NCBI GenBank assembly: GCA_025062375.1
Contig: JANXAG010000001.1
Location: 50,922-114,921 of the forward strand
Length of the DNA stretch: 64,000 nt
Direction: 5' to 3'
Origin: Anaerolineae bacterium
Lineage (GTDB): Bacteria > Chloroflexota > Anaerolineae > SpSt-600
The translations under genes were made by a program, and so were the position numbers. The notes below the pieces were generated by a model that worked only from the letters and a program-made list of their open reading frames with translations, was not told the DNA's origin and did not search any database. Each line of letters starts with the position of its first letter. Within the stretch, counting starts at the first letter, position 1. Below, piece by piece: positions 8,710 through 56,086 of this stretch.

Positions 8710-10086
8710 ATGCAGCTGATAGATAACTTCTCCCAGGCTTACATAAACATAGAAAGTTTCATAACCATTGGAGCCTTTGATGGGGTGCATCGGGGTCACC
8801 AGCACCTTATTCGCACTTTGGTCAGAGAGGCTCATGAGAAAGGCTTCCTGGCTGGGCTTGTAACCTTTCATCCTCACCCATCCGTAGTGCTTAACCCATC
8901 AAACCCCACTCGTTACCTGACAACTCCTGGGGAAAAGGTTTCAATTTTAGAGAAGATGGATTTGGACCTGGTTGCAATCTTGCCCTTTGATGAAAAGATG
9001 GCCAGAACACCAGCCCGTGAGTTTATAGGACTCCTCTGTAAACACCTGAACTTGAAAGAACTATGGGTGGGGGCTGATTTTGCCCTGGGCTTCCGGCGGG
9101 AAGGAAATGTAGAGGTTTTAAAAGAACTCGGCCGAGAGATGGGATTTATGGTGCGAGTGGTAGAGCCCCTCTATTTTAAGGGTGAAATCATATCCAGCAC
9201 CCGTATCCGTAAGCTCATAGCCCTGGGAGAAGTTCGGGAAGCTGCCCAGCTGCTTGGCCGGTATTACAGCCTTGCTGGAGAAGTAGTTAGAGGCGAAGGC
9301 CGCGGCCGAAGCCTCGGTTTCCCCACCGCCAACCTGGAGGTAAGGCCCGAAAGGGTCATCCCAGCTGATGGAGTCTATGTGACCTACGTCCGGGTGGGGC
9401 GGGATAGGCTCTGGGGGGTTACCAACGTGGGCATAAGACCTACCTTTGACGGAGGGAAGCGTCTGGTGGAAACTTATATCCTGAATTTTGAGGGCGACCT
9501 TTACGGCTACGACCTGGTGGTTGAGTTTGTGGAGAGGCTGAGGCCAGAGATGAAATTTCCCTCCGTAGAAGAACTTACGCGGCAAATCCGAGAGGATGTG
9601 GAAAAAGCTTTGAGAATTCTCGAAAGAGAGGAAGCCCTGGGAGGTATAGAGAACATGCTGGAGCCAGTATATACTCCTTCCATCAAACGGTTTGAAGAAC
9701 TCCCCCATACGGCCGATAAGGCGATAAAAGTTTACGGCAGCACCTTGGAAGATATTTTCGTCAATGCTGCTTTTGGTATGTTCAGCCTTATGGTTGACCC
9801 GCAAGAGATAAAAGTTGAAGTAACGCGGGAGCTGGAACTTTCCTCCTTTGATACAGAATCACTCCTGGTTAAATGGCTCAACGAGCTCCTTTACCTTCAC
9901 GAAATTGAGGGGGAGCTTTACCGGGACTTTGAAATTGTTTACCTGGACGAGAAATCCCTCAAAGCCAGGGTCTGGGGGGGGAAAGGCTATCCTACCAAAG
10001 CCAAAGTTAAAGCCGCCACCTACCATCACCTTGAAATAAGGGACGTAGGTAAAGGCTATGAAGCCACAGTGGTTTTTGACACTTAG
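8710..10086 (+). CDS. ribF: Bifunctional riboflavin kinase / FAD synthetase (RibF) fused in frame to a C-terminal archease domain
   Basis: Residues 1-315 form a full-length RibF ('GAFDGVHRGHQHL', flavokinase 'GFPTANL...TYILNFEGDLYG'). Residues 316-458 are archease-like. No stop codon separates the two parts. Confidence 0.85.
   Translation: MQLIDNFSQAYINIESFITIGAFDGVHRGHQHLIRTLVREAHEKGFLAGLVTFHPHPSVVLNPSNPTRYLTTPGEKVSILEKMDLDLVAILPFDEKMARTPAREFIGLLCKHLNLKELWVGADFALGFRREGNVEVLKELGREMGFMVRVVEPLYFKGEIISSTRIRKLIALGEVREAAQLLGRYYSLAGEVVRGEGRGRSLGFPTANLEVRPERVIPADGVYVTYVRVGRDRLWGVTNVGIRPTFDGGKRLVETYILNFEGDLYGYDLVVEFVERLRPEMKFPSVEELTRQIREDVEKALRILEREEALGGIENMLEPVYTPSIKRFEELPHTADKAIKVYGSTLEDIFVNAAFGMFSLMVDPQEIKVEVTRELELSSFDTESLLVKWLNELLYLHEIEGELYRDFEIVYLDEKSLKARVWGGKGYPTKAKVKAATYHHLEIRDVGKGYEATVVFDT
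9655..10086 (+). other. Archease domain (RtcB-ligase / tRNA-m5C-methyltransferase chaperone family) as the C-terminal 144 aa of the ribF ORF; possibly also translated independently
   Basis: Archease signatures are present: 'FEELPHTADKAIKVYGSTLEDIFVNAAFGMFSLM', 'ESLLVKWLNELLYL' and 'ATYHHLEIRD'. The in-frame ATG at 9655 is preceded by GGGAGG (9638-9643). Confidence 0.65.
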
Positions 10087-11693: not shown

Positions 11694-11810
11694 TTTGTGT
11701 GCTCTTATTCTGGCTTTGGTTTTTATTATAAAAGCCACTGTTGGTCTGTCAAGTTGAGCCAAGAAGGCTTGCTCGGCGGCGACGTTTGCTATAAAATTTC
11801 TAAGGGGGAA

Positions 11811-17186: not shown

Positions 17187-18043
17187 TTTTCCACCAGTTC
17201 AGCTACTTCTTCGGGATAAGAAGCCACAGGGATACCTGCCGCTTTGAAGGCTTCAATTTTTTCCTGGGCTGTGCCAATTCCCCCTTCAATGATAGCTCCA
17301 GCATGGCCCATCCTTTTTCCTGGAGGTGCTGTTCGCCCAGCTACAAAGGCCACCACTGGTTTGGTCATATTGGAGGAAATAAACTCTGCTGCCCTTTCCT
17401 CGTCCCTACCCCCAATTTCTCCGATGAGGACCACCGCTTTGGTTTGCGGATCTTCTTCAAACATGCTCAAAACCTCAATGAAATCAGTGCCCACCACGGG
17501 GTCACCGCCTATTCCGACAGCGGTGGATTGACCTATGCCCCGTCGGGTTAAGGCGTAGACTACTTCGTAGGTCAGAGTTCCGCTTCGGGAGACAATCCCA
17601 ACAGGGCCAGGAATATGAATGTGTCCTGGCATTATCCCTACTTTTGCCTCTCCGGGAGTTATTACTCCAGGGCAATTGGGGCCAATGAGCCGGCTCCCTT
17701 TGGCTTTGAGGTAGCTTTTTATTTTCACCGTTTCCTGCACTGGGATCCCTTCGGTTATGCATACTATAAGGGGTATCCCGGCATCGGCGGCCTCGTATAT
17801 GGCATCGGGAGCGAAGGGGGCAGGGACATATATTGCGGAGGTGTTGGCACCTGTAGCCTCAACAGCTTCTTTAACTGAGTCGAAGACGGGGATCCCCTCT
17901 ACTTCTTCACCCCCCTTACCCGGAGTAACTCCTGCCACCACTTTGGTCCCATACTCTATCATTTTGCGGGTGTGGAAACGGCCCTCTCTACCCGTTATGC
18001 CTTGGACTATAAGTCGGGTGTCTTTATTTACAAGGATTCCCAT
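17177..18043 (-). CDS. sucD: Succinyl-CoA synthetase (ADP/GDP-forming) alpha subunit, no adjacent beta subunit
   Basis: End-to-end similarity to SucD: the CoA-binding '[12 protein letters not shown]...GVTPGKGG' and the catalytic phospho-His context 'GHAGAII'. No sucC lies on either side. Confidence 0.85.
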
Positions 18044-19457
18044 TTTGTCTCCCCCGTTTGTAACCTGTTAAGGTTTTCCATGCCACTTTTACAGTTCTGG
18101 GCAAATCGAGCCAGGTGCGTTTACGGGTAAGGGCTTTGAGGATTCGCCGGGGCCGCAGATAAAAGCGCCGGTATGCTTCCCTCCATTTTCTTTCCACCAG
18201 TTCGGCAGGCATACCGGGCATTTCAAAATGGGCTTTGCCTTCAAAAAAGGCAAAATCATCCCAATCTTTAACGAGAAGCTTCCCTTCTCTTTTCACAATT
18301 TCGTACATTTCAGTTCCTGGGAACGGGGTAGCAATAGAGAAGTTAGCCACCAGCGGGTCAAGCTCTATAGCGAAACGTATGGTTTTCTCCATTGTTTCTT
18401 CAGTTTCACCGGGGAGCCCTATGATGAAAAAGCCTATAGTTTCTATCCCTGCTTCCCTGGCCCACTTGAAAGCTTTTCTTATTTGTTCCAGGGTGAGCTG
18501 TTTATGGATGACTTCATCCAGTATGCGCTGGTCGCCACTTTCCACCCCGAAAGCCACCCGGATGCAACCAGCCTCTCGCATTTTTCGGAGGAGTTCCTTA
18601 TCCACCAGATTGGCTCTTATCCCATTTATCATTATCCAGGGGACGTGGTTGAGTTTCTCTTTAATAAGTAGGTCGCAGATTCGGATGACCCTTTCCCTAT
18701 CCACATTGAAAGTATCATCCAGCACACCTATCTCCAGTGCTCCCATTTCCTTTACGAGCCAGCGCCATTCGGCCAGGACGTTTTCAGGAGAACGCATCCT
18801 CCAGCGACGTGGGCTTATTTGACTGCAGTAGGAACAGCGGTATGGGCATCCCCTGGAAGTCATTATGGGAAAACTTCTACCCCTGGGCAAATGGTCTATG
18901 GTGGGCTGAAGGTTGGTGTAAAGGTGCAGTTTGAAGGGACGATACGAGGGAAACGGGAGGGAGTCCAGATCCACAACTACGGGCCTATCGGGAGTAGAGA
19001 CGATTTCTCCAGAGGCAGTGCGAAAAGTTAGCCCTGAGATTTCTTTGAGGGCATGGGGGTCAAAGCCCTTTTCCAGAGAAGAAACGAGCTCTTCCCAGGT
19101 TAGTTCTCCTTCTCCCCTCACCACTATGTCTACGGCGGGATGGGAAATGGATTCTTCGGGCATGATAGTGGGGTGAACCCCTCCGAGCACTACCGGGACA
19201 TCCAGAACTTTTTTAACCCTCTCGGCGGTTTTCCAGGCCATTTTTATCTGCACAGTGGTGGCTGTTATCCCCACCACTTCCGGCCTGAATTCTTCCAGGA
19301 TCTGCTCTAAGGGTTCGGGATCCACTTCCCCATCCCAGACTTTTACCTGGTCTCCCCGGCGTTCGGAAACAGCGGTGAGGTAGGCAAGCCCCAGAGGAGG
19401 GGAAGCCCTCGTTTCAATTGGGATATTGTAAGGTGGGTTTATGAAAAGGACCCGCAT
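18024..19457 (-). CDS. Cobalamin-binding (class B) radical SAM protein, function unassigned
   Basis: An N-terminal B12-binding-like domain ('[10 protein letters not shown]...VVLGGVHPT') is followed by the radical SAM motif 'CPYRCSYC' (CxxxCxxC). Confidence 0.8.
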
Positions 19458-37093: not shown

Positions 37094-38335
37094 TCAAACC
37101 GAACGTATGGCAGGGACCCACAGCAGGATTGCCAGGGAGAAAAGCAGGTTTACCCCTGCTCCGAATGCTACCCCCGCTACGGGGCCGAAGGACTGAGCGA
37201 TGCTTCCCGCCAGGAGGGAGCCAAAGGGAACCATACCGAAAAACATGAAGGAAAAGACCGCCATAACCCTACCTCTCAAATTGTCAGGCACCACCGATTG
37301 AAGAAGAGTGTTGCCTGTGGAGTTCTGGATTACAAAACCAGCCCCCACCAGGACCAGAAAAACGAGGGATAAGAGGTAATTGGAAGAAAAGGCGAAAACT
37401 AAAAGAGCACTGGGGAAAAGGAGGCTTCCCGTTAGAAGAAGCCAGCCTTTACGGGGCAAACGACCCAGGGAGGCAACTATCAAAGAACCACAAAGAGCCC
37501 CGATACCAACAGCTGCGTTCAGAAAGCCAAGGCCCCTTTCACCCACTTTCAGGACATCTGCTGCATATGCAGGCATAAGGGTTGAGTAAGAGAAGCCGAA
37601 AAGGGTGGAAACCCCCACGATGAGCACTATTATCTGGGTTACACGATTCCCTGAAATATAGCGAAAACCCTCGGCCAATTGACGGAAGATGGGCTCTGAG
37701 GAGGGAGCGTAGGAAATATCTTTAAAATTCATGAGCACAAGGGCAGAGATCACAGCCAGAAAGCTTAAGCCATTTATCCCAAAGCACCAGGCTGGGCCCA
37801 GGTTTGCCAGCACGATTCCTCCAATAGCCGGCCCTATGACTCTGGCCAGGTTGAACATTGTGGAATTAAGGGCAATAGCGTTCATGAGATCTTCCCGGTT
37901 TTCAATCAACTCCACGGCCAGGGCCTGTCGGGCGGGTGCATCAAAGGAGTTAACGATTCCAGAGAGGAAAGCCACGAGGGCTATGTGCCAGATCTGGAGG
38001 GCTCCGGCAGCCGCCAGCCCGGTAAGGGTAAAAGCAAACAACATAAGGGCTACCTGGGTCGCCAGAAGGAGATGGCGCTTGGGGGTTCTGTCAGCTATCA
38101 CGCCTGCCGGAAGCGTTAAAAAAATGGTGGGGATCGTTCCCATAAACGAGACTAAACCCAGGGCGAAACGGGAGCCCGTAAGCTCGTATACCACCCAGCC
38201 CTGAGCTACCGATTGCATCCACATCCCCATGAGGGAAAAGCCCTGCCCGATAAACCAGAGGCGGTAATTGTGATAGCGAAGGGAAACAAAGGTGGGGGGA
38301 AGCCGTAGCTCTGCTGTCTTGAGGCATGGACTCAT
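37094..38335 (-). CDS. Major facilitator superfamily transporter
   Basis: Twelve predicted TM segments and MFS motif A 'GVIADRTPKR'. The start overlaps the rSAM stop by 4 nt. Confidence 0.85.
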   Translation of the reverse strand: MSPCLKTAELRLPPTFVSLRYHNYRLWFIGQGFSLMGMWMQSVAQGWVVYELTGSRFALGLVSFMGTIPTIFLTLPAGVIADRTPKRHLLLATQVALMLFAFTLTGLAAAGALQIWHIALVAFLSGIVNSFDAPARQALAVELIENREDLMNAIALNSTMFNLARVIGPAIGGIVLANLGPAWCFGINGLSFLAVISALVLMNFKDISYAPSSEPIFRQLAEGFRYISGNRVTQIIVLIVGVSTLFGFSYSTLMPAYAADVLKVGERGLGFLNAAVGIGALCGSLIVASLGRLPRKGWLLLTGSLLFPSALLVFAFSSNYLLSLVFLVLVGAGFVIQNSTGNTLLQSVVPDNLRGRVMAVFSFMFFGMVPFGSLLAGSIAQSFGPVAGVAFGAGVNLLFSLAILLWVPAIRSV

Positions 38336-40062
38336 GACTCAGCTCCCCGGAAAAGTATTGTAGCACTTCTGAGGAGGCGTAAGTTGAAGAACCCAAGCCG
38401 CACGTTTAACTCTTCCTTATCGCAGACGGTGGAAGTGTTTGCATTATCCACGTGGGGTTTCAGAGCCCTGAGGAATTTATCCCTGAGGGCACTATTGGAC
38501 ATGGTAAGGACGTCGTCGATAAGGCGGAGGAGGAGGCGAGCTTTGTGGATGCGGGAGCTCACGTCTTCTGCCCTGCGCGGAGAAATCAGACCATATGCTT
38601 TCTTGAGCTCATTGAGGCGGAGCCCCGCTTCATAGGTGCTTTCCACTATCTCTTCCCTGCTCATCCATATGGTTTCATAACTAAGGATATACTTCCAGCT
38701 GGGCTGCTCCAGGGCAAAGCGGTGCTCTTCAAGAGAGCGATAGAAAACCCTATAGCCGTATTGTTCTGGAGCCTCAAAGGCCGCACTCCCGGGATCGAGG
38801 AAGGGGGCCATGGGTGAGATAAAGGGGAAAAGGCGTGGGCTCCGGTTCCGATTGAATTCCCGGATAAGCTTGCCAGCGTAATCCACTGTCTCCATAACTG
38901 AAGAAAAGTCCTGTCCGGGAAGGCCAATCATGAAGAAGACATCCAGCCTTTTACATCCTGCTTCCAGGGCGTATTCCATAGTGGCTTCGGCTTGAGCTGT
39001 GGTATAGGGTCGTCCGAAGGCCTGCCGAACAGCATCGCTATGGCTTTCCAGGGAAATTTCCAGAACGAAATTGGGCAGGGCACGAGCTAACTTCCTGAAG
39101 AAATCCCGATCGGCAGCATCGAATAGCTCCACTATGACAGGCCCCTCGTATCCCTGAATGGCTTTGAAGAACCTGTCGGCGTAATCCATCCCTGCCTGGC
39201 GCAGATCTCCGAGGATAAACACAGGGCCTTTGGAGAAGCGGGCAATATTACGGATGTCTCTGGCCAGAAGTTCGGGATCCCTGTAGGCGGGCTCAGAGCG
39301 CCCATGCAGCTTCCTGAAAGTGTAGGCAGATCCCCCACAGGTCCGGCAGGAATGCGTGCAGCCGCGGCAGGTCAGAACAGCTGTGATGGGATAGCCGAGC
39401 CATCCTTTGAAAGGTATAAAGCTGATTAAATCTCGGTAGCGGGCTACCGCTCTTACGACGTAGCTGTAATCTAAAAGCACGTAGTTCAAATCGGGAGGAA
39501 TCCAGCTTAGAGGGTTTATGTGGATCTCTCCCTTTTCATCTTTCCAGGTCAGGTTGGGGATGGCTTCAAGGGGAGGCGCATCCTTATCCCCTCTTATTCG
39601 CTTCATAAGCAACCGGAGAGGCTCCTCCGCAGAATCTCCCCGGACCACGAAGTCTACTTCGGGTCGTTCTATAAGTTCGCGGTGATAGTAAGTGGAGGAA
39701 AATCCTCCGAGTATAACGGGGGTTTGAGGGTGATATCTTTTGACCAGGCGGGCCACTTCTATAGCTCCGTGGCAGTGGGGCATCCAGTGCAGATCTATCC
39801 CAAAGGCCAAGGGATTGAGGGATGAAATCAAATTTTCGGGGTTAAAGCGTTCAGAAGCCAACATCCTGACGGCTAAGTTTATTATCCTGACTTTGAATCC
39901 GTGGCGTTCCAGGTATTCGGCTATCGTGGTAAAACCTATAGGATACATCTCAAAAATCGGGGTTGACGGGATTAGGTCGCTTATAGGGCCGTAAAGGATG
40001 GTTTTGGTGCGGAAATCGTAAACACTTGGAGGATGGAGGAGGATCAGATCTGGATTAGCCAT
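38332..40062 (-). CDS. Cobalamin-binding (class B) radical SAM protein with ~200-aa C-terminal extension, function unassigned
   Basis: A B12-binding-like N-domain ('VILGGFSSTYY'), the radical SAM motif 'CTHSCRTC' and a long helical C-terminal region are present. Confidence 0.8.
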   Translation of the reverse strand: MANPDLILLHPPSVYDFRTKTILYGPISDLIPSTPIFEMYPIGFTTIAEYLERHGFKVRIINLAVRMLASERFNPENLISSLNPLAFGIDLHWMPHCHGAIEVARLVKRYHPQTPVILGGFSSTYYHRELIERPEVDFVVRGDSAEEPLRLLMKRIRGDKDAPPLEAIPNLTWKDEKGEIHINPLSWIPPDLNYVLLDYSYVVRAVARYRDLISFIPFKGWLGYPITAVLTCRGCTHSCRTCGGSAYTFRKLHGRSEPAYRDPELLARDIRNIARFSKGPVFILGDLRQAGMDYADRFFKAIQGYEGPVIVELFDAADRDFFRKLARALPNFVLEISLESHSDAVRQAFGRPYTTAQAEATMEYALEAGCKRLDVFFMIGLPGQDFSSVMETVDYAGKLIREFNRNRSPRLFPFISPMAPFLDPGSAAFEAPEQYGYRVFYRSLEEHRFALEQPSWKYILSYETIWMSREEIVESTYEAGLRLNELKKAYGLISPRRAEDVSSRIHKARLLLRLIDDVLTMSNSALRDKFLRALKPHVDNANTSTVCDKEELNVRLGFFNLRLLRSATILFRGAES

Positions 40063-44243: not shown

Positions 44244-45785
44244 ATGCGGATGAGCAAGCTCTTCGGCCGTACTTTGAGGCAGGTGGAGGAGAGAGGAAGC
44301 ACGGGCCTTAAGCTCCTGGCAAGGGCAGGTTTCCTCCGAAGGGAGCCCTTTTCCATCCTGCCCCTCGGTTCCCTGGCCTTGGAGAAGCTCAAATCTCTTT
44401 GGGAGAAAGTTCTTGCCCCGGAGTTTCAAAGAATTGAATTAACCTTCTGTGAGCCCCTATCGCCTGAAGAAAAGCTCCTGCTCCTTGTTTCCAAAGAGCT
44501 CGCATCGTACCGGGAACTCCCTCTCTACTTGGAATCAGAAGTGTACCTCAGTAAAACTTCTCCCTTTTACCTGCCGGAAGGGAAGGCTTACCTTTTATTG
44601 GGACTTTTACCGGATGAGGGTTCAGCCCGGGAACAGTGGCAAGCTTTGAGCGAAAAGGCCGAGAGGTTGATCAAGTCGTGCAAGCTTCACAGCCCTTTTC
44701 CCGGCTTCGGAAAGGGATGGGACTGGATTGTGCCAGACCCTGAGGGGGAAGAGAGGGTGGTGGTATGTCCAGGCTGCGGGTATTCAGCGCCTCCTGCCTG
44801 GGCCAGGGTTCATATAGAACCCCTCCCTCCCGAGGAGTTAGAGCCCCCGAGAGAGGTGGCAACCCCCAATTGCACTACTATTGAGTCCCTGGCTTCCTTC
44901 CTGGGGGTTCCCAGAAGTAAAACGGCTAAAGCTGTATTTTATACCGGAGAGGATGAGAGAATAGTTTTCGCTGTAATCCGAGGGGATATGGAGGTAAGCG
45001 AGGCTAAGCTTTCATCAGAACTGGGCTGGGTAACGCTCAGACCTTCTACCGAAGGGGAACTGCTCTTTGCGGGTATAGTGCCTGGTTATGCTTCGCCCAT
45101 AGGGGTCAAAGGGGTAACTGTTGCGGTGGATAGCTCCCTCAGAAGCGGAGCTAACTTTGTAGCCGGAGCTAACCGGGAAGGTTACCATTTAATCGGGGTA
45201 AATTATCCCAGAGATTTCCAGGCAAATCTGGAAGGGGATCTGGCCCTGGCCAGGGCCGGGGACCGATGTCCTTTCTGCCAGGCTGTTTTTGAAGAAGCCA
45301 GGGGGTTTCTGGTGGCATCACTGCGGATGGCTGGCCCCGAGGGCACATCTCGCCGCGGCCTTTCTTTCAATACTCCCGAGAGGAGAAAGGATCACCCATG
45401 GGCCATCCTTATGGTTCTTTACCCATACCGGTTTCTGGAAGCAGTAGCTCAATTAAATCATGATGAAAAGGGGTTGCTTTGGCCCGAGCCTTTAGCCCCC
45501 TTCCACGTTCACCTCATAGGCCTTGGAGAAGAAGGCCTCACCGAAGGAGAAAGCTTTTACCTTCGGCTCAAGACCGAGGGAATAGCGGTGCTGTTTGACG
45601 ATCGGGATGAAAGCGCCGGAGTAAAGTTTACCGATGCCGACCTAATAGGCCTGCCCTGGAGGGTGGTGGTAAGCAAGCGTTCCTTATCTCAGGGAGGGGT
45701 TGAAGTCAGAAGAAGAACCGAATCTCTTTCAAGGGTTGTGCCCTTTGACGTTTTCCTCAGAGAAGTTCAATCCGGTAATCAATGA
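44244..45785 (+). CDS. Prolyl-tRNA synthetase-like protein with degenerate class II catalytic motifs but retained INS (editing)-domain and anticodon-binding-domain signatures
   Basis: It aligns with bacterial ProRS at the N-terminus, at INS-like blocks ('VATPNCTTIESLASFLGV', 'RGDMEVSEAK', 'GANREGYHLIGVNYPRD') and at the anticodon-binding domain ('HVHLIGLGEE...DDRDESAGVKFTDADLIGLPWRVVV'). Motif 2 (FRDExRPR becomes YLSKTSP) and motif 3 (GCYGIGVSR becomes VLYPYRFLE) are degenerate. Confidence 0.55.
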   Translation: MRMSKLFGRTLRQVEERGSTGLKLLARAGFLRREPFSILPLGSLALEKLKSLWEKVLAPEFQRIELTFCEPLSPEEKLLLLVSKELASYRELPLYLESEVYLSKTSPFYLPEGKAYLLLGLLPDEGSAREQWQALSEKAERLIKSCKLHSPFPGFGKGWDWIVPDPEGEERVVVCPGCGYSAPPAWARVHIEPLPPEELEPPREVATPNCTTIESLASFLGVPRSKTAKAVFYTGEDERIVFAVIRGDMEVSEAKLSSELGWVTLRPSTEGELLFAGIVPGYASPIGVKGVTVAVDSSLRSGANFVAGANREGYHLIGVNYPRDFQANLEGDLALARAGDRCPFCQAVFEEARGFLVASLRMAGPEGTSRRGLSFNTPERRKDHPWAILMVLYPYRFLEAVAQLNHDEKGLLWPEPLAPFHVHLIGLGEEGLTEGESFYLRLKTEGIAVLFDDRDESAGVKFTDADLIGLPWRVVVSKRSLSQGGVEVRRRTESLSRVVPFDVFLREVQSGNQ

Positions 45786-46041
45786 GCTCTACCTGAGGGT
45801 AGTGCTGTAAAATCCATTCCACTACGTTGCTCAGAAGGCGATGCGCTTCCTCTGAGCTGGTAGAGACGCAGGCGATTCCCAGCTCGGCCCTCTGCCAGAG
45901 ATCCTGAGCGCCTATTTCGGCTATGGAGACGTTGAAGTTGCTCTGGACCCGCCGAATTATGGATTGAAGTATTCTCCTTTTATCTTTCAGAGAACCGTTC
46001 CCTGGGAGGTGCAGTTCGAGAGTGCAGGTTCCGATTACCAA
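45757..46041 (-). CDS. DUF503-family protein (YlxP-like)
   Basis: 'LELHLPGNGSLKDKRRILQSIIRRVQSNFNVSIAEIGAQDLWQRAELGIACVS' matches DUF503. Confidence 0.7.
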   Translation of the reverse strand: MVIGTCTLELHLPGNGSLKDKRRILQSIIRRVQSNFNVSIAEIGAQDLWQRAELGIACVSTSSEEAHRLLSNVVEWILQHYPQVELIDYRIELL

Positions 46042-47117
46042 GTCCAGCTTATCCTCTCTTCAAGCCAGCCTCTGGAGTTTTCCCGGTCAATTCCCACGAT
46101 GCCGTCAGGGCTTCCACCGAGGTTGAAGAGGCGCCTTAGGCCTGAACCATCAGGCCTTATGACCCACACAGCCCACTCTCCACCCCGATTGGACAGGAAG
46201 GCGATGTAATTTCCGTCGGGCGACCAGGTGGGTAAACCGTCGATAGCGGGGTCTTTAGTCAGGCGTCTGAGGCCTGTTCCATCGGAGTTGACGATGTAGA
46301 TTTCCCAGTTGCCATCGCGCATAGACATGAAGACGACTTTGCGGCCATCCGGGGAAGCCTCTGGTGCAGCGTCGGTGGGATCAGTGGTGAGGCGTTTTAC
46401 AACAGCCCCGCCGGTTGTTATCACAAAAAGTCCGCACTCACGGCATTGCCTGGCGGTGTAAACGATTGTGCCATCGGGCATCCAGGATGGGTATTCTCCG
46501 AAAACAGGGCCATAAAGTCCACTCATATCGCTCATGATAACCCCGTAGCCGCTGGGGGTGGTGATGTAAATGCGGGGGAAGCGGTCAGGATCCTCACGGG
46601 AGTGGAAAGCGAAAGCTTTATCGTCGAAAGACCAGCTGGGGCGAGCAGCTTCTGCCCGCCACTGAGTGCCCTGGATGTTCCACCAGTCGCCTCCTATAAC
46701 CTGGCCAAAAATACCACGCCTTGCGTTATCCCAGGAGCGATAGGCTATGCGGGTGCCATCGGAGTTAAAGTCGGGCTGGCTGGCTTGCTCCAGGAGCTTC
46801 CTTCTGCCTGAACCGTCAACGTTGGCCACAAAGATATCGTAAGTCTGGCGGGCGGGATCGTAGAGGGGGAAAGCTATTTTCCCTTTAAGGACAAGAGGCC
46901 GAGCAGAAGGTGTCGGAGTAGCTTCCGGCGATGGAGTTGGGGTTGGGATTTCAGGCGAAGGAGACGGAATTGGGGTAGAAGTGAAGGTCGGCGTTGGCGA
47001 TGGGGTAAAGGTAAAAGTTGGGAGGACCACTGTTACCCTGGGGGTGGGTGAAGGGGTTGCGCATCCTGCTGCTAATAAGCATAAAACGATGGTTAAAGCT
47101 AAAATTTTTCCCCTCAT
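46035..47117 (-). CDS. TolB-like beta-propeller (PD40-repeat) lipoprotein
   Basis: The lipobox 'LLAAGCA' and a Pro/Thr-rich linker are followed by repeated 'DG..IAF/VVF...S..DG' PD40 units. Confidence 0.7.
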   Translation of the reverse strand: MRGKILALTIVLCLLAAGCATPSPTPRVTVVLPTFTFTPSPTPTFTSTPIPSPSPEIPTPTPSPEATPTPSARPLVLKGKIAFPLYDPARQTYDIFVANVDGSGRRKLLEQASQPDFNSDGTRIAYRSWDNARRGIFGQVIGGDWWNIQGTQWRAEAARPSWSFDDKAFAFHSREDPDRFPRIYITTPSGYGVIMSDMSGLYGPVFGEYPSWMPDGTIVYTARQCRECGLFVITTGGAVVKRLTTDPTDAAPEASPDGRKVVFMSMRDGNWEIYIVNSDGTGLRRLTKDPAIDGLPTWSPDGNYIAFLSNRGGEWAVWVIRPDGSGLRRLFNLGGSPDGIVGIDRENSRGWLEERISWTW

Positions 47118-47935
47118 TTTAAACCTCCAAGTCTAAAAGTCCATTCTTCGCTTGAATACTTTTTCCGCAAACTGCGGGCTTGTTCTTCTTCAAAAGGGGT
47201 GAGGGAAGAAGGAACCAACAGCAGGTTGAAGGCCTCCCGGAAGCCTCGGATGAAGGCAACAGTTGCTTCTTCAAAGGTTATTTCCCGGCCCAGCAGGTCC
47301 GAAAGGGTTGAGGCCCTCTGGCGGAGCTTTTCCCTGAGGGCTTCTTTCTCCTTCTCTCCGAGGCGAAGGAAACGGACTATAGCCGCGATATCACCTCTGA
47401 GAGGTATAGAGCCATGCTGAAGGAGGGCATTCTTGCGACGGAGCTGGGCGCTACCTATGACCTTTTTGCCTTCACACTCTATCTCATAATCGGAAGGAGC
47501 TTCAAAGCACACGGGGCTTGGGAGATTACCCTGGCGGGGTGGTATTGCCTGATAGGGCTTCAAACCCAGAACTTCAAGACCTCTGAGAAGTCCATAACTT
47601 ATCCTTCGGAAGGAATCCAGAACCCCCGTTCCGGCCAGAGGATGGGAGGCAGGCAGAACGACGGTGTAGGTGAGTTCGTGGTGATGGAGGATGGCTTTGC
47701 CTCCGGTAGGCCTGCGGACTATCTCAACGCCAGCTCTGTGGCATTCTTCAAGGTCTAACTCTTCCAGGATTGCTTGATTGAGGCCTACTGAAAGACATGG
47801 AGGTTCCCACCCATAGAAGCGCAGAGTAGGAGGAACAAGGCCTTCCGAAACAGCCTGAAGGATAGCCTCATCTATGGCCATATTGGTTGCTCCATCGGCA
47901 AAGCCGCTTACTACAAGCCGCCAGCTTTCGGCCAT
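47114..47935 (-). CDS. Lipoate-protein ligase A / octanoyltransferase family (BPL_LplA_LipB catalytic domain only)
   Basis: 'RRPTGGKAILHHHELTY' and the Lys block 'GKKVIGSAQ' are present. Confidence 0.8.
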   Translation of the reverse strand: MAESWRLVVSGFADGATNMAIDEAILQAVSEGLVPPTLRFYGWEPPCLSVGLNQAILEELDLEECHRAGVEIVRRPTGGKAILHHHELTYTVVLPASHPLAGTGVLDSFRRISYGLLRGLEVLGLKPYQAIPPRQGNLPSPVCFEAPSDYEIECEGKKVIGSAQLRRKNALLQHGSIPLRGDIAAIVRFLRLGEKEKEALREKLRQRASTLSDLLGREITFEEATVAFIRGFREAFNLLLVPSSLTPFEEEQARSLRKKYSSEEWTFRLGGLK

Positions 47936-48873
47936 ATGCCTGCCTCCATTATAGCGCGGCGAGTTTCAGCCGGGGACGGGGGGTAAGGAAAGTTGTATAG
48001 GGGGCCTGATGGGCGTTCGTTGTAGTAGGGACGGTTGCAATCGGGGCAGCCTGAAGTTCGGAAGGCTTCACCGCTGGAAAGAACTTCCAGGTCAAATGGA
48101 GGGAAAGCCATTAATTTGCCATCCCTGGAGAAGGAAAGCTCCTCAGCCCGGACCAGATTTTGGACTATGAGATAACGGGCTATCTGGATGCGTCTGTAGG
48201 AAGCGAGGGGAGGGGGTGGTGAGTTTTCCATCCTTGTTCCAGCCAGAGGGGTAAAGGCGAAAAGTCCTGTAATTACGCCCAGGTCATGCATCTTCTGAAT
48301 CATCCGGATCATTTCTTCTTCTGTCTCGCCCAGGCCCACGATAAGGTGAACAGCTGCCCGACCGGGGTATTTGTAAGCTGTTTCTTCTATAAGGCTAAGG
48401 GCTTTTCCCCAGCCAGGCCCTTTGACCCGGGCGAAGACTCTTTCGGAGGCAGCATCCAGGCCAAAGCCTAGATGGTCAAGGCCGGCCTCGAACAGGATCT
48501 GAACTTCCCTGAAGTTCTGCGGGAGGAAAGCAGCATCTACAGGCAGAGGAGTCCTTTCCCTCAGTTTACGGACCAGCCTCACGGTTTTCTGGAAAGCTCC
48601 GGGGGAGTGGGTGACCTGAAGGCATATCCTCTTAAAGGGGCCGAGAGAACCCAGGGCTTCAAGTCTGGAAATTACTGTTTCTTCTGGGAAAGGGGGCCAG
48701 GAAATTCGTGAAAGGGAATAGGGCTTAGCGTTGCTGCTTCGGGCTTGCGAGCAAAAAGCGCAATCTCTCAGGCATTTGCCCCCCAGCATCAGGTAAGCGG
48801 TAGTAGGGGGGTGAGCCACTTTACCCAGTTTCAATCCCAGAGCTATGGCCGTTCCCAAGGAGATATTAACCAT
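47911..48873 (-). CDS. Radical SAM protein, lipoyl-synthase-like but non-canonical (possible LipS-type)
   Basis: The N-proximal motif 'CLRDCAFC' (CxxxCxxC) and a C-terminal 'GCPDCNRPYY' Cys pair are present. It lacks the LipA N-terminal auxiliary-cluster motif. The gene overlaps and is co-oriented with the LplA-family gene. Confidence 0.55.
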   Translation of the reverse strand: MVNISLGTAIALGLKLGKVAHPPTTAYLMLGGKCLRDCAFCSQARSSNAKPYSLSRISWPPFPEETVISRLEALGSLGPFKRICLQVTHSPGAFQKTVRLVRKLRERTPLPVDAAFLPQNFREVQILFEAGLDHLGFGLDAASERVFARVKGPGWGKALSLIEETAYKYPGRAAVHLIVGLGETEEEMIRMIQKMHDLGVITGLFAFTPLAGTRMENSPPPPLASYRRIQIARYLIVQNLVRAEELSFSRDGKLMAFPPFDLEVLSSGEAFRTSGCPDCNRPYYNERPSGPLYNFPYPPSPAETRRAIMEAGIWPKAGGL

Positions 48874-48980
48874 GGCGTTTATTTTATACCTCTTCCTGGC
48901 CCCTCTTGCAAACTCGTATTAGGCTGTTTAAAACTTCCCGACAGAACAGGATGGCTGAGATGCGACGGAGCTGAAAGTAG

Positions 48981-50948
<1,968 letters not shown>

Positions 50949-50962
50949 AGGAGGGAAAAAAG

Positions 50963-51778
50963 ATGGATACCCGGAGGCGCAAAATCCTCAAGGGAGCAGC
51001 TGCTGGCGGAGCTCTTCTGACCCTGGGAGTCATAGGAGGGGTAGGCAGCTTCAAAGCGGGTCAGAACCTCGCTAAAGTTGAATACGAGCTGGAAATAGCC
51101 AAACTCCGCACCCTCATTAAACTCTATCAGGAACTGGATAAAATCGGGATAGACGCACTTCTTAAGACTGCCCTTAAGACCATAACGTTGCCTCTGGAAA
51201 CAGTAAAAAAGGGGATTAGCGTGTTAAAGGAGGCAGTGGAGAAAGCCGAAGAGGCCCTGAGCAGACTCCTTTCGGCCTTGGCCCGGTGGCAGGAGCTCCT
51301 CAAAGAAGGAAAAGAGATTGTCCTGGAAATTGTTTCCTCTATGGAAGAAGCAGGCAAACTGATGGCCAGAGCCCTTGGCAAAATCCTTCCCTTCGCCGAA
51401 GCCGTTATAGAGTTCTTTGCCAGGCTGCTCCAGAAGTTGCCATTCGGGGCGGGCAAGGAACTTGGCGAAGCCCTTGAATCCGTAAAGACCCTCCTGAGGA
51501 ACCTTCCACAGATCGTTGAAAGGATAAACCTGAAAATCTTCGGGGGCCTTGGAGAAGATATTAACCCCGGGGACAGTGGCAAAGCAAAGGTTGAGGAAGA
51601 GGTCTCAGAACCTATAAAACTTGGGCTCCTTGAACCCCTTAAGGTTTTCCTTGAGGATGTGATGGTCCTTGTGGATAGCATTGAAAGGGACTTTGCTACC
51701 CCCATAGAAACGGCTTTAGCCGAAAGGGCTAAAATCCGCCAGCAAATAGAGGAATTCCGTCGTCAGCACGGCCTGTAA
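50963..51778 (+). CDS. Hypothetical all-alpha protein with an N-terminal twin-arginine (Tat)-like signal
   Basis: 'TRRRKILKGAAAGGALLTLGVIGG' is followed by ~240 aa of Glu/Lys/Leu-rich helical sequence without Cys. A strong AAAGGAGGG RBS precedes it. Confidence 0.55.
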   Translation: MDTRRRKILKGAAAGGALLTLGVIGGVGSFKAGQNLAKVEYELEIAKLRTLIKLYQELDKIGIDALLKTALKTITLPLETVKKGISVLKEAVEKAEEALSRLLSALARWQELLKEGKEIVLEIVSSMEEAGKLMARALGKILPFAEAVIEFFARLLQKLPFGAGKELGEALESVKTLLRNLPQIVERINLKIFGGLGEDINPGDSGKAKVEEEVSEPIKLGLLEPLKVFLEDVMVLVDSIERDFATPIETALAERAKIRQQIEEFRRQHGL

Positions 51779-52972: not shown

Positions 52973-53914
52973 ATGCTTGCCGTCATAATTGTAAGCTATA
53001 ACGTTCGTCAATACCTCGAGCGTTGTCTTGAATCGGTGCTGGCGGATTTCATGGCTTCCGGAGTGAAAGGAGCCATCTGGGTTTTTGACAATGCTTCGTC
53101 TGACGGAAGCCAGAGCATGATAAAGGAAAGATACCCCCAGGTCAAACTCCATGCCCATGAAACTAATGTGGGATTCGCCGCGGCCAATAACTTTGTAATG
53201 CGAGAACTCTTAGCTTCCCCATCCCCTCCCGATTATTTTTTCCTCCTTAATCCCGATACAGAGGTTCTCCCGGGAACAATCGGAGTGCTTCGGGAATTCA
53301 TGGAGGAGAACCCAGGGGTGGCAGTAGCAAGTCCGAAGCTCCTGAACCCTGATGGCTCTCTGCAACCCTCAGCTTTCAGATTTCCGGGGCTTATCCAGAC
53401 CTTTTTTGACTTTTTCCCCCTTCACCCTCGTCTTTACTCTTCTCTTCTGAATGGCCGTTACCCGGGCTTCCTCTACCGCAGGGGTAAACCTTTTTCCATA
53501 GACCACCCTTTGGGAGCTGCCATGCTGGTCCGCCGAAAAGCCGTAGAAGAAGTGGGCCTCATGGATGAAAGCTTCTTTATCTATTGCGAGGAGATTGACT
53601 GGTGTTTGCGGTTCAAAAAAGCTGGCTGGCTTATCTACTGTGTTCCCCAGGCCAGTGTAATTCACTACATTGCCAGAAGCACATCCCATTTTCCCCAGAG
53701 AGCGATGATAGAGCTCTGGAAAAGCCGCTACCGGTTTTACTCCAAGCACAAAGGGCCGTGGTTTCTCAGAGCTTTCCGCAAACTGGTGAAAATAGGGTTA
53801 GAGTTCAGGGCTATGACAGATTCAAGGCTGGCGAGGAAAGGTTTTATATCCCGGGAAGAACTCAGCACACGCCTGGATACATATAGAGCAATAAAGGAAA
53901 CCTTGGGCTTATGA
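52973..53914 (+). CDS. Glycosyltransferase family 2
   Basis: 'VIIVSYN', 'FDNASSDGS' and 'LLNPDTE' are present. It is paralogous to 42043..43020. Confidence 0.8.
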   Translation: MLAVIIVSYNVRQYLERCLESVLADFMASGVKGAIWVFDNASSDGSQSMIKERYPQVKLHAHETNVGFAAANNFVMRELLASPSPPDYFFLLNPDTEVLPGTIGVLREFMEENPGVAVASPKLLNPDGSLQPSAFRFPGLIQTFFDFFPLHPRLYSSLLNGRYPGFLYRRGKPFSIDHPLGAAMLVRRKAVEEVGLMDESFFIYCEEIDWCLRFKKAGWLIYCVPQASVIHYIARSTSHFPQRAMIELWKSRYRFYSKHKGPWFLRAFRKLVKIGLEFRAMTDSRLARKGFISREELSTRLDTYRAIKETLGL

Positions 53915-54675
53915 AGGGGATAACGGCTTTGGTGCTAACCTTAAACGAGGAGAAAAACATAGAGGAATGCCTCCAAACCCTCCTGTGGGCCGATAAACTC
54001 ATCGTGCTGGATTCTGGAAGCTCTGATCGCACGGTGGAAATTGCCTGGAGGATGGGGGCAGAGGTTTTCTTTCACCCTTTCCAGAACTATGCAGACCAAC
54101 GTAATTTTGCCCTCCAGCTGGTTCAAACAGATTGGGTTCTTTTTATAGATGCCGATGAAAGGGTGACGCCGGAGTTAGCTCAGGAGATAAGGGAAGCGGT
54201 GGAAAAGGAAAGCATTTGCGGATGGTGGATACCCCGAAAAAATTACATCTGCGGCCGGTGGGTCCGGCACGGGGGCTGGTATCCTGATTACCAGCTTCGT
54301 CTCCTGCGCCCTGAAAAAGCTCACTACGATTCCGCTTGGGAGGTCCATGAAATTGTAGTGGTTGAAGGGGGAACCGGCTACCTCCGCCACCACATTATCC
54401 ACTATAACTACAGGACATGGCCGGAATTCATCGCTCGTCAGAAAGTTTACCTCCCCCTTGAGGTAAGGACATTGCGGAAACGAGGTATAAAGGCAAAACC
54501 CTGGAGCCCTTTTTCAATGCCTCTCAGGGAATTCTGGAGGCGATATTTCAAACTTGAGGGATATAAAGACGGCCTTTATGGCTTAATTTTGGCCTTGGCT
54601 ATGGCCTTCTATACAATGCTGGCTTACACTCAACTCTTTCTTTCATCCTTCAGGTTAAAAGAGCCACGGGCCTGA
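53911..54675 (+). CDS. Glycosyltransferase family 2 (small, LPS-core-type)
   Basis: The protein begins 'ITALVLTLNEEKNIEECL' and has 'LDSGSSD' and 'FIDADE'. Confidence 0.8.
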   Translation: MKGITALVLTLNEEKNIEECLQTLLWADKLIVLDSGSSDRTVEIAWRMGAEVFFHPFQNYADQRNFALQLVQTDWVLFIDADERVTPELAQEIREAVEKESICGWWIPRKNYICGRWVRHGGWYPDYQLRLLRPEKAHYDSAWEVHEIVVVEGGTGYLRHHIIHYNYRTWPEFIARQKVYLPLEVRTLRKRGIKAKPWSPFSMPLREFWRRYFKLEGYKDGLYGLILALAMAFYTMLAYTQLFLSSFRLKEPRA

Positions 54676-56086
54676 AGGTTATCACACCTCTTTCAAATTT
54701 TACCCTGGGCAAGCCCCACCTATCGGTGGTAGGGTCTTCTACGGGATAACCCAGGGGGCCTTCTGCTCCGCCTTTTTCGTAAATGTAGTAGTCCCTTATG
54801 GGGCCCCACAGGATATAAGCTTTTGAGGTTCCATCCCTAAGCATTATTATAGACTTGAAAGAGCCATCGGGCGTTTTGAAATCCTGAACCCAACCATTTC
54901 CCCAGCGGTGAACGGGGACTCCTCCACCATTATCGAAGGGAAGACCGAGGACTTTTTCCCCACCATGCCTAAGGTAACATTCTACAATGGGCCAGTAAAT
55001 GCGCCCGGAAGCATCCCTTCCCACTGACGGCGGAACATCCAGAAGCTCAGGGGTCCGGGATATGCTGGCCCATTCTTGGAACCGGTAGTATATGGGTTTG
55101 CGGGCAAGAGTTCCAAAGCCAGCCTGAGTGTAGAGGCCTTTTGTAGTGCCGGGGAAATCCCGCAGGCAGAACCAGATGGCTGCTCCTATTCTCTCATCTT
55201 TCAGTAAAGTGTAAAAAGCTGTCGCCATGGCGGCGGCTTGAAAATCATCGCCCTGCTCTGAATCCCAACCAATTTCGGAAATGTATATGCGCGTTGAGGT
55301 GTTCTTACCCTCATAAATCGTTATGCTTTCCCAAATGGCGTTGATGTAAGTCTGAAGAGTGTTCCGAATATAATCAACCCCTCTGTCTCTGGTCTGGCCT
55401 ATGTAGGGGTGATAGCCAACCCCGTCAAGAGGATATGAGCCGAAAGCACTTTTTACTTCACCCCAGTTTAATTCCCTTATTCCGTAATAGTACATTTGAC
55501 GCAGATAAGAGGCTCCGGTGTCGGCGCCGGTTGGAAGGTCATGGGCAAGAATAGGCCCAGAGATTATGCGGACGTTGAAAGAGGGCTTAACAGCCAGGTA
55601 CACCTCCTTCTGGATGCGAGCCATCCAGTAGGGGTGGAAAAGGCTTGTAGTTCCTCCAAACCAGTTGTTGGGCTCGTTTATAAGCTCAAAAACCCAAACG
55701 CGGTCGCGGAAACGCTCAACAATTGTGTAAAAGTTATCCACATACCTCTTGATCCAATCTTCTGCCCCAGGGCCCGGGGCTTTGCGGCGGAAATTATCTC
55801 CAGGCCCAGGCTTCACCGATTCTAAACCGATCAAACCATATATCGCCACATTTCTGGCCAGAAGTCCGTCCACTATGGCGTCAAAGGTCTCAAACCATGT
55901 TCTTCTGCAGTATAGGGAGCGATCGGTGGGGGAATTCCAGGGCCCCAGGATGAAATTGAGGCGAACCATACTGGTTCTGGTATCGGCTATTATCCGGGGG
56001 TCAGCCATTTGGGGTGCTGGGCACCCATTGGGCTCAAGAGGGCTGTTGGCGTCAAGGCCTATTTTGGAAGAAGGTATAAGGGCCAT
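54650..56086 (-). CDS. Clan GH-A (GH5-like) glycoside hydrolase with C-terminal LGFP-like repeats
   Basis: The acid/base motif 'ELINEPNNW' and the nucleophile 'ISEIGW' are present, with 'GPLGYPVEDP' at the C-terminus. No obvious signal peptide is visible. Confidence 0.65.
   Translation of the reverse strand: MALIPSSKIGLDANSPLEPNGCPAPQMADPRIIADTRTSMVRLNFILGPWNSPTDRSLYCRRTWFETFDAIVDGLLARNVAIYGLIGLESVKPGPGDNFRRKAPGPGAEDWIKRYVDNFYTIVERFRDRVWVFELINEPNNWFGGTTSLFHPYWMARIQKEVYLAVKPSFNVRIISGPILAHDLPTGADTGASYLRQMYYYGIRELNWGEVKSAFGSYPLDGVGYHPYIGQTRDRGVDYIRNTLQTYINAIWESITIYEGKNTSTRIYISEIGWDSEQGDDFQAAAMATAFYTLLKDERIGAAIWFCLRDFPGTTKGLYTQAGFGTLARKPIYYRFQEWASISRTPELLDVPPSVGRDASGRIYWPIVECYLRHGGEKVLGLPFDNGGGVPVHRWGNGWVQDFKTPDGSFKSIIMLRDGTSKAYILWGPIRDYYIYEKGGAEGPLGYPVEDPTTDRWGLPRVKFERGVITFRPVALLT

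Follow-up and report, generated by a model that had tools for sequence, protein, structure and literature searches.

LipS2 of Thermococcus kodakarensis (TK2248) was reportedly characterised by Jin et al. in 2020. Mutagenesis of this protein (Tk LipS2) assigned the radical S-adenosylmethionine (SAM) cluster to C39, C43 and C46 and an auxiliary [4Fe–4S] cluster to C85, C276, C279 and probably H178, and the lipS1 and lipS2 genes of this organism are unlinked, being separated by more than 130 genes (Neti et al. 2022, PMC9585515). Tanabe et al. (2023, PLoS Biol; PMC10332631) reported that LipS1 and LipS2 also co-occur with the octanoyltransferase LipM in place of a ligase, including in Chloroflexota and Firmicutes; in their S4 Table, 62 Chloroflexota genomes have LipS1 and LipS2 and 36 of these have LipM (28 with LipM and Lpl, 8 with LipM only). 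Here we describe a string of four minus-strand genes in a 64-kb stretch of DNA from an Anaerolineae bacterium, referred to below, at its full length, as the window. To judge from sequence, this locus is very probably the LipS2 and LipM half of the known LipS1/LipS2 lipoate assembly pathway, with LipS1 encoded elsewhere in the genome and with two further genes, for a PD40 propeller lipoprotein and a DUF503 protein, as tightly packed bystanders.

A preliminary description of this DNA had proposed four co-oriented, overlapping genes, and the coordinates in the open reading frame (ORF) list match it exactly, with overlaps of 25, 4 and 7 nt down the string. All four of the families that it had named (radical SAM, LplA/LipM catalytic domain, PD40 and DUF503) are found by Pfam. 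The features of the locus are as follows.

47911–48873, minus strand: lipS2, radical SAM lipoyl synthase subunit, 320 aa (NCBIfam LipS2 equivalog and Cys pattern)
47114–47935, minus strand: lipM-type single-domain octanoyltransferase, 273 aa (Pfam LplA-B_cat/BPL_LplA_LipB, with similarity to B. subtilis LipM)
46035–47117, minus strand: PD40 beta-propeller lipoprotein, predicted secreted, 360 aa (Pfam PD40 repeats and lipobox)
45757–46041, minus strand: DUF503 protein, 94 aa, TTG start (Pfam DUF503)
48874–49001: divergent intergenic spacer between lipS2 and gyrB, 128 nt, presumed promoter region of the four-gene string

The radical SAM protein

The radical SAM protein reaches 348.7 bits on the NCBIfam model NF053743, the LipS2 equivalog (cut-off 270), with residues 3–296 aligned to positions 2–292 of the 292-position profile. 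The resemblance to LipS1/LipS2-type enzymes that had been suggested for it is thereby borne out. In the comparison with the LipA, LipS1, LipS2 and BioB profiles that had been proposed as a check, LipS2 is passed, the scores for the BioB equivalog TIGR00433 (43.7 bits, cut-off 225) and the LipA equivalog TIGR00510 (33.1 bits, cut-off 310) fall far below their cut-offs, and NCBIfam returns no LipS1 match at E ≤ 0.01. The HmdB score is also far under its cut-off.

The protein contains exactly six cysteines. Three form the CX3CX2C motif (C34-x3-C38-x2-C41) and the others are C84, C276 and C279; none of the six falls into a LipA-type Cx4Cx5C arrangement. All six cysteines, as well as H176, are invariant across 59 distinct LipS2 homologues, and they correspond by position, rather than through an alignment of the Tk sequence itself, to the cluster ligands of Tk LipS2. 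The C-terminal cysteine pair that had been noted alongside the missing LipA motif is C276/C279, the CxxC of the LipS2 auxiliary cluster, matching C276/C279 of the Tk protein. The label 'non-canonical' given to the enzyme can be withdrawn, as both its equivalog score and its ligand set are ordinary for the LipS2 family. The protein belongs to this family by profile and ligand pattern, and its predicted activity is sulfur insertion at C8.

The LipM-type octanoyltransferase

In the 273-aa protein encoded by the second gene, Pfam detects LplA-B_cat/BPL_LplA_LipB only (residues 14–232 of 273; 130.7 bits for LplA-B_cat) and neither a C-terminal nor an LplB accessory domain. The protein shares 41.6% identity with Bacillus subtilis LipM over 274 aa (BLASTP E 2e-72), where the B. 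subtilis protein is represented by P0243, a database record named 'octanoyltransferase LipM [Bacillus subtilis]' and 99–100% identical to the query sequence. Matches to characterised LplA ligases are weaker: phmmer gives E 5e-23 for LplA of Thermoplasma acidophilum, the best match of solved structure, and 2.5e-6 for Escherichia coli LplA. The cysteine of the VCFEAPS segment aligns with C150 of B. subtilis LipM and is kept by 39 of the 41 sequences in the alignment (B. subtilis LipM and 40 LipS2-linked homologues), and the lysine of GKKVIGSAQ aligns with K165 and is conserved in 40 of the 41. T. acidophilum LplA lacks the CFxAPS segment.

NCBIfam holds no LipM-specific model. The 273-aa protein stays below the cut-off of every NCBIfam LplA model (the best is LplA_large, with 100.7 bits where 480 are required). 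The authentic B. subtilis LipM likewise matches LplA models only, below cut-off. Because the true LipM behaves like the window protein, NCBIfam is uninformative for discriminating between LipM and LplA. On the similarities listed above, the predicted protein is of the LipM type and nearer to characterised LipM than to the characterised LplA ligases.

LipS1

When all ORFs of 150 aa or more are scanned for CxxxCxxC, no second LipS-type or LipA-type radical SAM protein is seen in the window; the motif otherwise occurs only in MiaB, in MtaB and in two radical SAM proteins of the B12-binding kind. Four Bacillota LipS1 queries yield no tblastn match in the window, and in the Chloroflexota relatives no LipS1 gene lies within 10 kb of LipS2.

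A LipS1 protein (P0363, 281 aa; 284.5 bits on the LipS1 equivalog, cut-off 230) was found by cluster look-up. It is deposited as MCS7286936.1 and MDW8102789.1, whose accession numbers differ by 1,327 and 1,477 from those of the LipS2 records MCS7285609.1 and MDW8101312.1. The first of these LipS2 records, from a 178-kb contig of one assembly, is identical to the window LipS2. The second differs from it by one residue and comes from JAVQUD010000001.1, a contig in another assembly of the same organism (GCA_033580795.1, an Anaerolineae metagenome-assembled genome (MAG)) that is 99.99% identical to the window, with 2 mismatches in 20,822 nt. The contigs bearing P0363 are at most 26.9 kb long.

A metagenome scan with a LipS1 alignment gave 80 loci, most with the order lipS1–lipS2–lipM and some with LipS1 genes alone at ∼53% G+C. 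The closest NCBI relatives of one stand-alone LipS1 used as query (L076) are on DAOUBN010000164.1, from the same MAG as the LipS2–LipM contig DAOUBN010000176.1 (L002), and on DAOUCW010000028.1, from the MAG of L003. Both of these sister MAGs, H70_729 and H87_871, thus have LipS1 on a contig separate from LipS2. The sister-MAG LipS1 proteins score 285–289 bits on the LipS1 equivalog and share a conserved context, ATPase–HIT–AMMECR1–(121 aa)–LipS1–DksA/TraR–PFOR. The HIT, AMMECR1 and PFOR genes of this context are missing from the window, which gives no indication that genes were deleted locally. The preliminary remark that only one radical SAM protein of this kind is present thus applies to the window alone: P0363 lies in the same accession blocks, and the two sister MAGs are arranged likewise. 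To the extent that these records can be joined, the organism has a predicted LipS1, unlinked from lipS2 as in T. kodakarensis.

Two observations concern neighbouring genes and other radical SAM proteins. In the clade of the window, LipS1 is preceded, with a 7-nt overlap, by a 121-aa protein whose only Pfam match is HMG-CoA_red_N (L116, 7642–8861; also L076, L115 and L118), within a block HIT–AMMECR1–x–LipS1–DksA/TraR–PFOR (gamma, delta, alpha, beta). The two B12-binding radical SAM proteins of the window are encoded at 38332–40062 and 18024–19457, both on the minus strand; one qualifies fully for the uncharacterised family TIGR04190 (Ta0216; 647.9 bits, cut-off 500) and the other is HpnJ/BchE-like, below all cut-offs.

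Proposed pathway

Family membership and published enzymology (PMC9585515; PMC10332631) suggest the following sequence of reactions. In the first step, LipM would attach an octanoyl group to an acceptor protein, for instance GcvH, at its lipoyl-lysine, the donor most likely being octanoyl-acyl carrier protein (octanoyl-ACP) and the transfer proceeding through a Cys thioester; we infer both donor and acceptor. In the second, the CX3CX2C-bound [4Fe–4S]/SAM site of LipS2 would abstract a hydrogen at C8, and the auxiliary [4Fe–4S] cluster (C84, C276, C279 and H176) would donate sulfur to give an 8-mercaptooctanoyl intermediate. In the third, LipS1, supplied from another contig, would insert the second sulfur at C6. 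The window would account for steps 1 and 2 only. The PD40 and DUF503 genes are probably co-transcribed with lipS2–lipM through tight packing.

GGAGG-like ribosome-binding sites precede the Lpl and PD40 start codons, each located inside the respective upstream gene. A promoter scan reported no sigma-70-like site in the 128-nt lipS2/gyrB spacer; the single promoter-like match in the scanned region is at 47143–47116 on the minus strand, where 1.9 matches are expected by chance. A terminator scan found no terminator-like site on the minus strand within the operon. Both the promoter and the terminator counts of the operon are no higher than those of shuffled sequence.

Conservation of gene order

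lipS2 and lipM remain adjacent in lineages ranging from Anaerolineae to Bacillota, as well as in many lineages known from metagenomes. The surroundings of the pair vary among the relatives of the window, as listed here with the identity of their LipS2 proteins to that of the window.

L024–L028 (window clade), LipS2 75–78% identical: LipS2–LipM–PD40–DUF503, then a convergent ProRS-like gene
L031/32, LipS2 59%: (truncated Lpd)–x–x–LipS2–LipM–PIN–DUF503
L120, LipS2 58%: LipS2 alone
L029/30, LipS2 57%: LipS2 alone
L121/122, LipS2 56%: LipS2 alone
L033/34, LipS2 54%: Lpd–LipS2–LipM–TatA

A PD40 gene is found after LipM only in those relatives whose LipS2 shares at least 75% identity with that of the window, and DUF503 occurs near LipS2–LipM only in the window clade and in L031/L032. 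No PD40 gene on the same strand, and no DUF503 gene, is present in ∼45 LipS1–LipS2–LipM clusters of other lineages, where the gene after LipM is dihydrolipoyl dehydrogenase (lpd) in 17 cases. Within the window clade, three loci have a ∼4-kb two-gene insertion between lipS2 and lipM that breaks the overlap seen in the window. The two inserted genes, which encode proteins of 457 aa and 493–593 aa, have no Pfam or PADLOC match; the insertion lies at the following positions.

L026: 11282–14452
L027: 5659–8829
L028: 1551–4721

Several features of individual loci were seen in passing. The LipM homologue of L031 (8303–12084) and L032 is 379 aa long and carries ∼100 extra residues at its C-terminus without a match to any family, and the dihydrolipoyl-dehydrogenase-like gene upstream in the same two loci encodes 332 aa covering profile positions 1–297 of 461 and is apparently truncated. 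The sister-MAG contigs L001 (ending at 11805) and L002 (ending at 8930) stop within ∼100 nt past lipM, where the linker of the PD40 protein would begin; this low-complexity, variable Pro/Thr/Ser-rich stretch probably breaks assemblies. In three high-GC metagenomic loci (L072, 3024–3995; L082, 8631–9653; L091, 7476–8447), a distant PD40 protein (27–30% identity) is encoded on the opposite strand, convergent just after lipS2, which is probably a coincidence, PD40 proteins being common.

The PD40 and DUF503 proteins

The N-terminus of the PD40 protein, MRGKILALTIVLCLLAAGC, is a signal peptide with a lipobox-like LAAGC. A Pro/Thr/Ser-rich linker of ∼55 residues follows the lipobox and leads into the PD40 propeller (Pfam PD40, 83.6 bits). 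Against the TolB equivalog TIGR02800 the protein reaches 120.6 bits, with a cut-off of 343, and the best stretch covers profile positions 238–322 of 418. It has no TolB N-terminal domain, and its neighbours are lipM, DUF503 and a ProRS-like gene rather than those of a tolQRA–tolB–pal cluster; it does not qualify as a member of the TolB family. The 'TolB-like' in the earlier term 'TolB-like lipoprotein' holds for the propeller only. We consider the PD40 lipoprotein to be a generic, co-oriented neighbour that is probably unrelated in function to lipoylation.

The DUF503 protein scores 110.2 bits against Pfam PF04456 (gathering threshold 22.4), residues 3–90 covering positions 1–87 of the 88-position profile. 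It shows a weak match to PDB entry 1J27 (Thermus thermophilus TT1725, a structural-genomics entry). A literature search for DUF503 returned two incidental mentions only.

The tight spacing of the four genes has to be read against its surroundings. The window contains 47 same-strand neighbouring ORF pairs, of which 20 overlap and 19 more are 0–20 nt apart, unrelated genes included; longest-ORF start calls inflate the number of overlaps somewhat. With 39 of 47 pairs overlapping or within 20 nt, an overlap says little about function.

Alternative explanations

Three other explanations of the locus were weighed. We give practically no credence to the idea that the radical SAM protein has nothing to do with lipoate and inserts sulfur elsewhere, as a relative of biotin synthase or an enzyme of another kind. 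This idea draws on the JGI names of the homologues ('biotin synthase' or 'biotin synthase-related radical SAM') and on the closest solved structures by sequence, which are BioB (8VDW, E 7e-4) and LipA (5EXI, E 3e-3), a sequence search of the PDB having found no structure of a LipS2. Tk LipS2, itself formerly annotated BioB, was shown biochemically to act on an octanoyl-lysyl peptide (PMC9585515). Moreover, the BioB score of 43.7 bits stands against 348.7 bits for LipS2. Across phyla, lipS2 is joined in operon order to a gene for a lipoyl transferase, and in many lineages it lies beside gcvTHP and lpd. Profile scores and gene context effectively refute a BioB-like identity. More plausible, if still unlikely, is that the 273-aa protein acts as LplA, the large subunit, in a two-part LplA–LplB ligase, so that octanoate or lipoate would be scavenged in an ATP-dependent reaction before sulfur insertion by LipS2/LipS1. 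Indeed, LplA_large is the NCBIfam model that it matches best, and among proteins of solved structure T. acidophilum LplA comes first; in the analysis of Tanabe et al., LipM and LplAB fall into a single clade with repeated conversions between both (PMC10332631), and single-domain LplA-like proteins of sulfur oxidizers turned out to be true ligases (PMC6067878). The LplA_large score is, however, far under its cut-off, a pattern shared by B. subtilis LipM, and the similarity to the latter is much stronger than that to T. acidophilum LplA (E 2e-72 versus 5e-23), which is also without the Cys150 equivalent found in 39 of the 41 aligned sequences. In addition, no lplB-sized gene adjoins LipM in any bacterial locus examined, and the downstream gene is usually lpd.

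The remaining alternative takes the four genes as a functional unit, in which DUF503, or less plausibly the PD40 lipoprotein, would serve lipoylation by LipS2 and LipM as an accessory factor, for example as a carrier, a chaperone or a regulator. The four-gene order is kept in all five relatives that have sequence downstream of LipM, including the 7-nt PD40/DUF503 overlap. DUF503 also lies two genes past LipS2–LipM in L031/32, with PIN in place of PD40, and the internal ribosome-binding sites described above would fit such a unit. An accessory role would give DUF503 its first functional context. Nevertheless, all PD40 cases fall within one shallow clade (LipS2 75–78%, PD40 ∼78% with 85% in the propeller, and DUF503 ∼85% identical), so synteny by descent is to be expected; both genes are missing from the four other Chloroflexota lineages and from the ∼45 LipS1–LipS2–LipM clusters of other phyla. 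The insertion in L026–28 parts LipS2 from LipM–PD40–DUF503. Conservation of the overlaps, which had been put forward as a check, is mixed, as the 7-nt PD40/DUF503 overlap is retained and, in the relatives from the window clade, an 11-nt spacer stands in place of the overlap between Lpl and PD40. Lipoylation takes place in the cytoplasm, whereas export is predicted for the PD40 protein, and tight packing is the rule in this genome. We regard a functional unit of four genes as very improbable. The coupling of the PD40 lipoprotein to lipoylation that had been suggested earlier does not extend beyond the one clade, with PIN in its place in L031/32 and nothing comparable elsewhere. With its restriction to this clade and the generally tight packing in the window, the PD40 link is best taken as a matter of lineage-specific packing, and the PD40 and DUF503 genes are most likely tightly packed, lineage-specific neighbours outside the lipoylation machinery.

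Some points nonetheless weigh against the interpretation of the locus as the LipS2 and LipM half of the pathway with two bystanders: (i) DUF503 is found downstream of LipS2–LipM in two Anaerolineae lineages with different intervening genes, and this recurrence could mean a functional link instead of inherited synteny, although it is compatible with the latter; (ii) P0363 is assigned to the same genome through accession-number proximity and the presence of identical proteins in two assemblies, rather than by reading its contig; (iii) the LipM assignment draws on overall similarity and the conserved cysteine, since there is no LipM model and the LplA scores are below cut-off and (iv) the role of that cysteine is the one that Christensen and Cronan (2010) reportedly found for Cys150 of B. 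subtilis LipM, the acyl-thioester site. Nothing on this role is contained in PMC3904984, and bioRxiv 419234 documents C150 for LipL only.

Adjacent and unrelated genes

The 3′ end of the DUF503 gene overlaps a convergent gene by 29 nt. This gene (44244–45785, plus strand) encodes a 513-aa ProRS-like protein with Pfam matches to tRNA_edit (INS) and HGTP_anticodon only. The NCBIfam proS model matches residues 161–507 only (234 bits, cut-off 558), and the N-terminal 160 residues, the expected site of class II motifs 1 and 2, look degenerate. The protein is 73% identical in the relatives, where its gene is always convergent to DUF503; possible identities are an editing factor and a ProRS paralogue whose catalysis has changed. 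Several convergent pairs in the window overlap at their 3′ ends, among them 44244–45785 with 45757–46041 and 53911–54675 with 54650–56086. On the other side of the locus, directly after gyrB, a gene at 50963–51778 (plus strand) encodes a 271-aa protein whose N-terminus is Tat/Sec-like and whose sequence is helical and rich in Glu, Lys and Leu; searches of Pfam, NCBIfam and PADLOC gave no match to it.

Comparison with known systems

The LipS2 protein of the window and Tk LipS2 (Neti et al. 2022, PMC9585515) share the NCBIfam equivalog, the length class (320 aa), the six-Cys pattern and the conserved histidine (176; 178 in Tk), and in both organisms lipS1 is unlinked from lipS2. The two systems differ in that the window is bacterial (Anaerolineae) and, as far as its sequence tells, encodes a LipM-type single-domain transferase instead of an LplA–LplB ligase. 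The pathway logic is the same as that of the sLpl(AB)–LipS1/LipS2 and LipM–LipS1/LipS2 systems, and the adjacency of lipS2 and lipM is the cluster type that defines 'LipS1/S2-coupled octanoyltransferases' (PMC10332631). Compared with those systems, the window has lipS1 on another contig, no adjacent lipT, gcv or lpd, and PD40 and DUF503 genes downstream.

For the transferase, the closest characterised relative is B. subtilis LipM (YqhM), an octanoyl-ACP:GcvH octanoyltransferase, with which it shares full-length similarity (41.6%), the single domain and the equivalents of Cys150 and Lys165. The partners of B. subtilis LipM are LipA and LipL, whereas those of the window protein would be LipS2 and LipS1, no LipL being evident in the window. 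The PD40 protein resembles TolB of the Tol–Pal system in its PD40-repeat beta-propeller and export signal and differs from it in having a lipobox and a Pro/Thr/Ser-rich linker instead of the N-terminal domain and in having no tol or pal gene beside it.

The genes of Carboxydothermus islandicus and other Bacillota provide the most complete layout, gcvT–gcvH–gcvPA–gcvPB–lipS1–lipS2–lipM(–lpd) (L004–L007 and many of L035–L114), and the LipS1 of the Bacillota cluster scores 293 bits on the LipS1 equivalog (cut-off 230). LipS2 and LipM of the window form an orthologous pair with those of C. islandicus (46% and 44% identity), alike in order and tight spacing. The Bacillota clusters have lipS1 directly upstream and a glycine-cleavage/lpd setting, all of which the Anaerolineae locus has lost.

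The gain from this analysis lies mainly in annotation, as proteins named 'radical SAM protein' in GenBank, and with homologues often named 'biotin synthase' by JGI, can now be read as LipS2 with a LipM-type octanoyltransferase, in an organism that, with P0363, would possess the whole LipS1/LipS2 route. The arrangement of these genes in Chloroflexota appears fluid, with LipS2 alone, LipS2–LipM or Lpd–LipS2–LipM, and LipS1 elsewhere. The occurrence of DUF503 beside LipS2–LipM in two lineages is the sole loose thread, and otherwise no new question is raised. Set beside the systems above, the locus adds another example from Anaerolineae to the pathway described in 2020–2023 and is unusual in its gene arrangement only.

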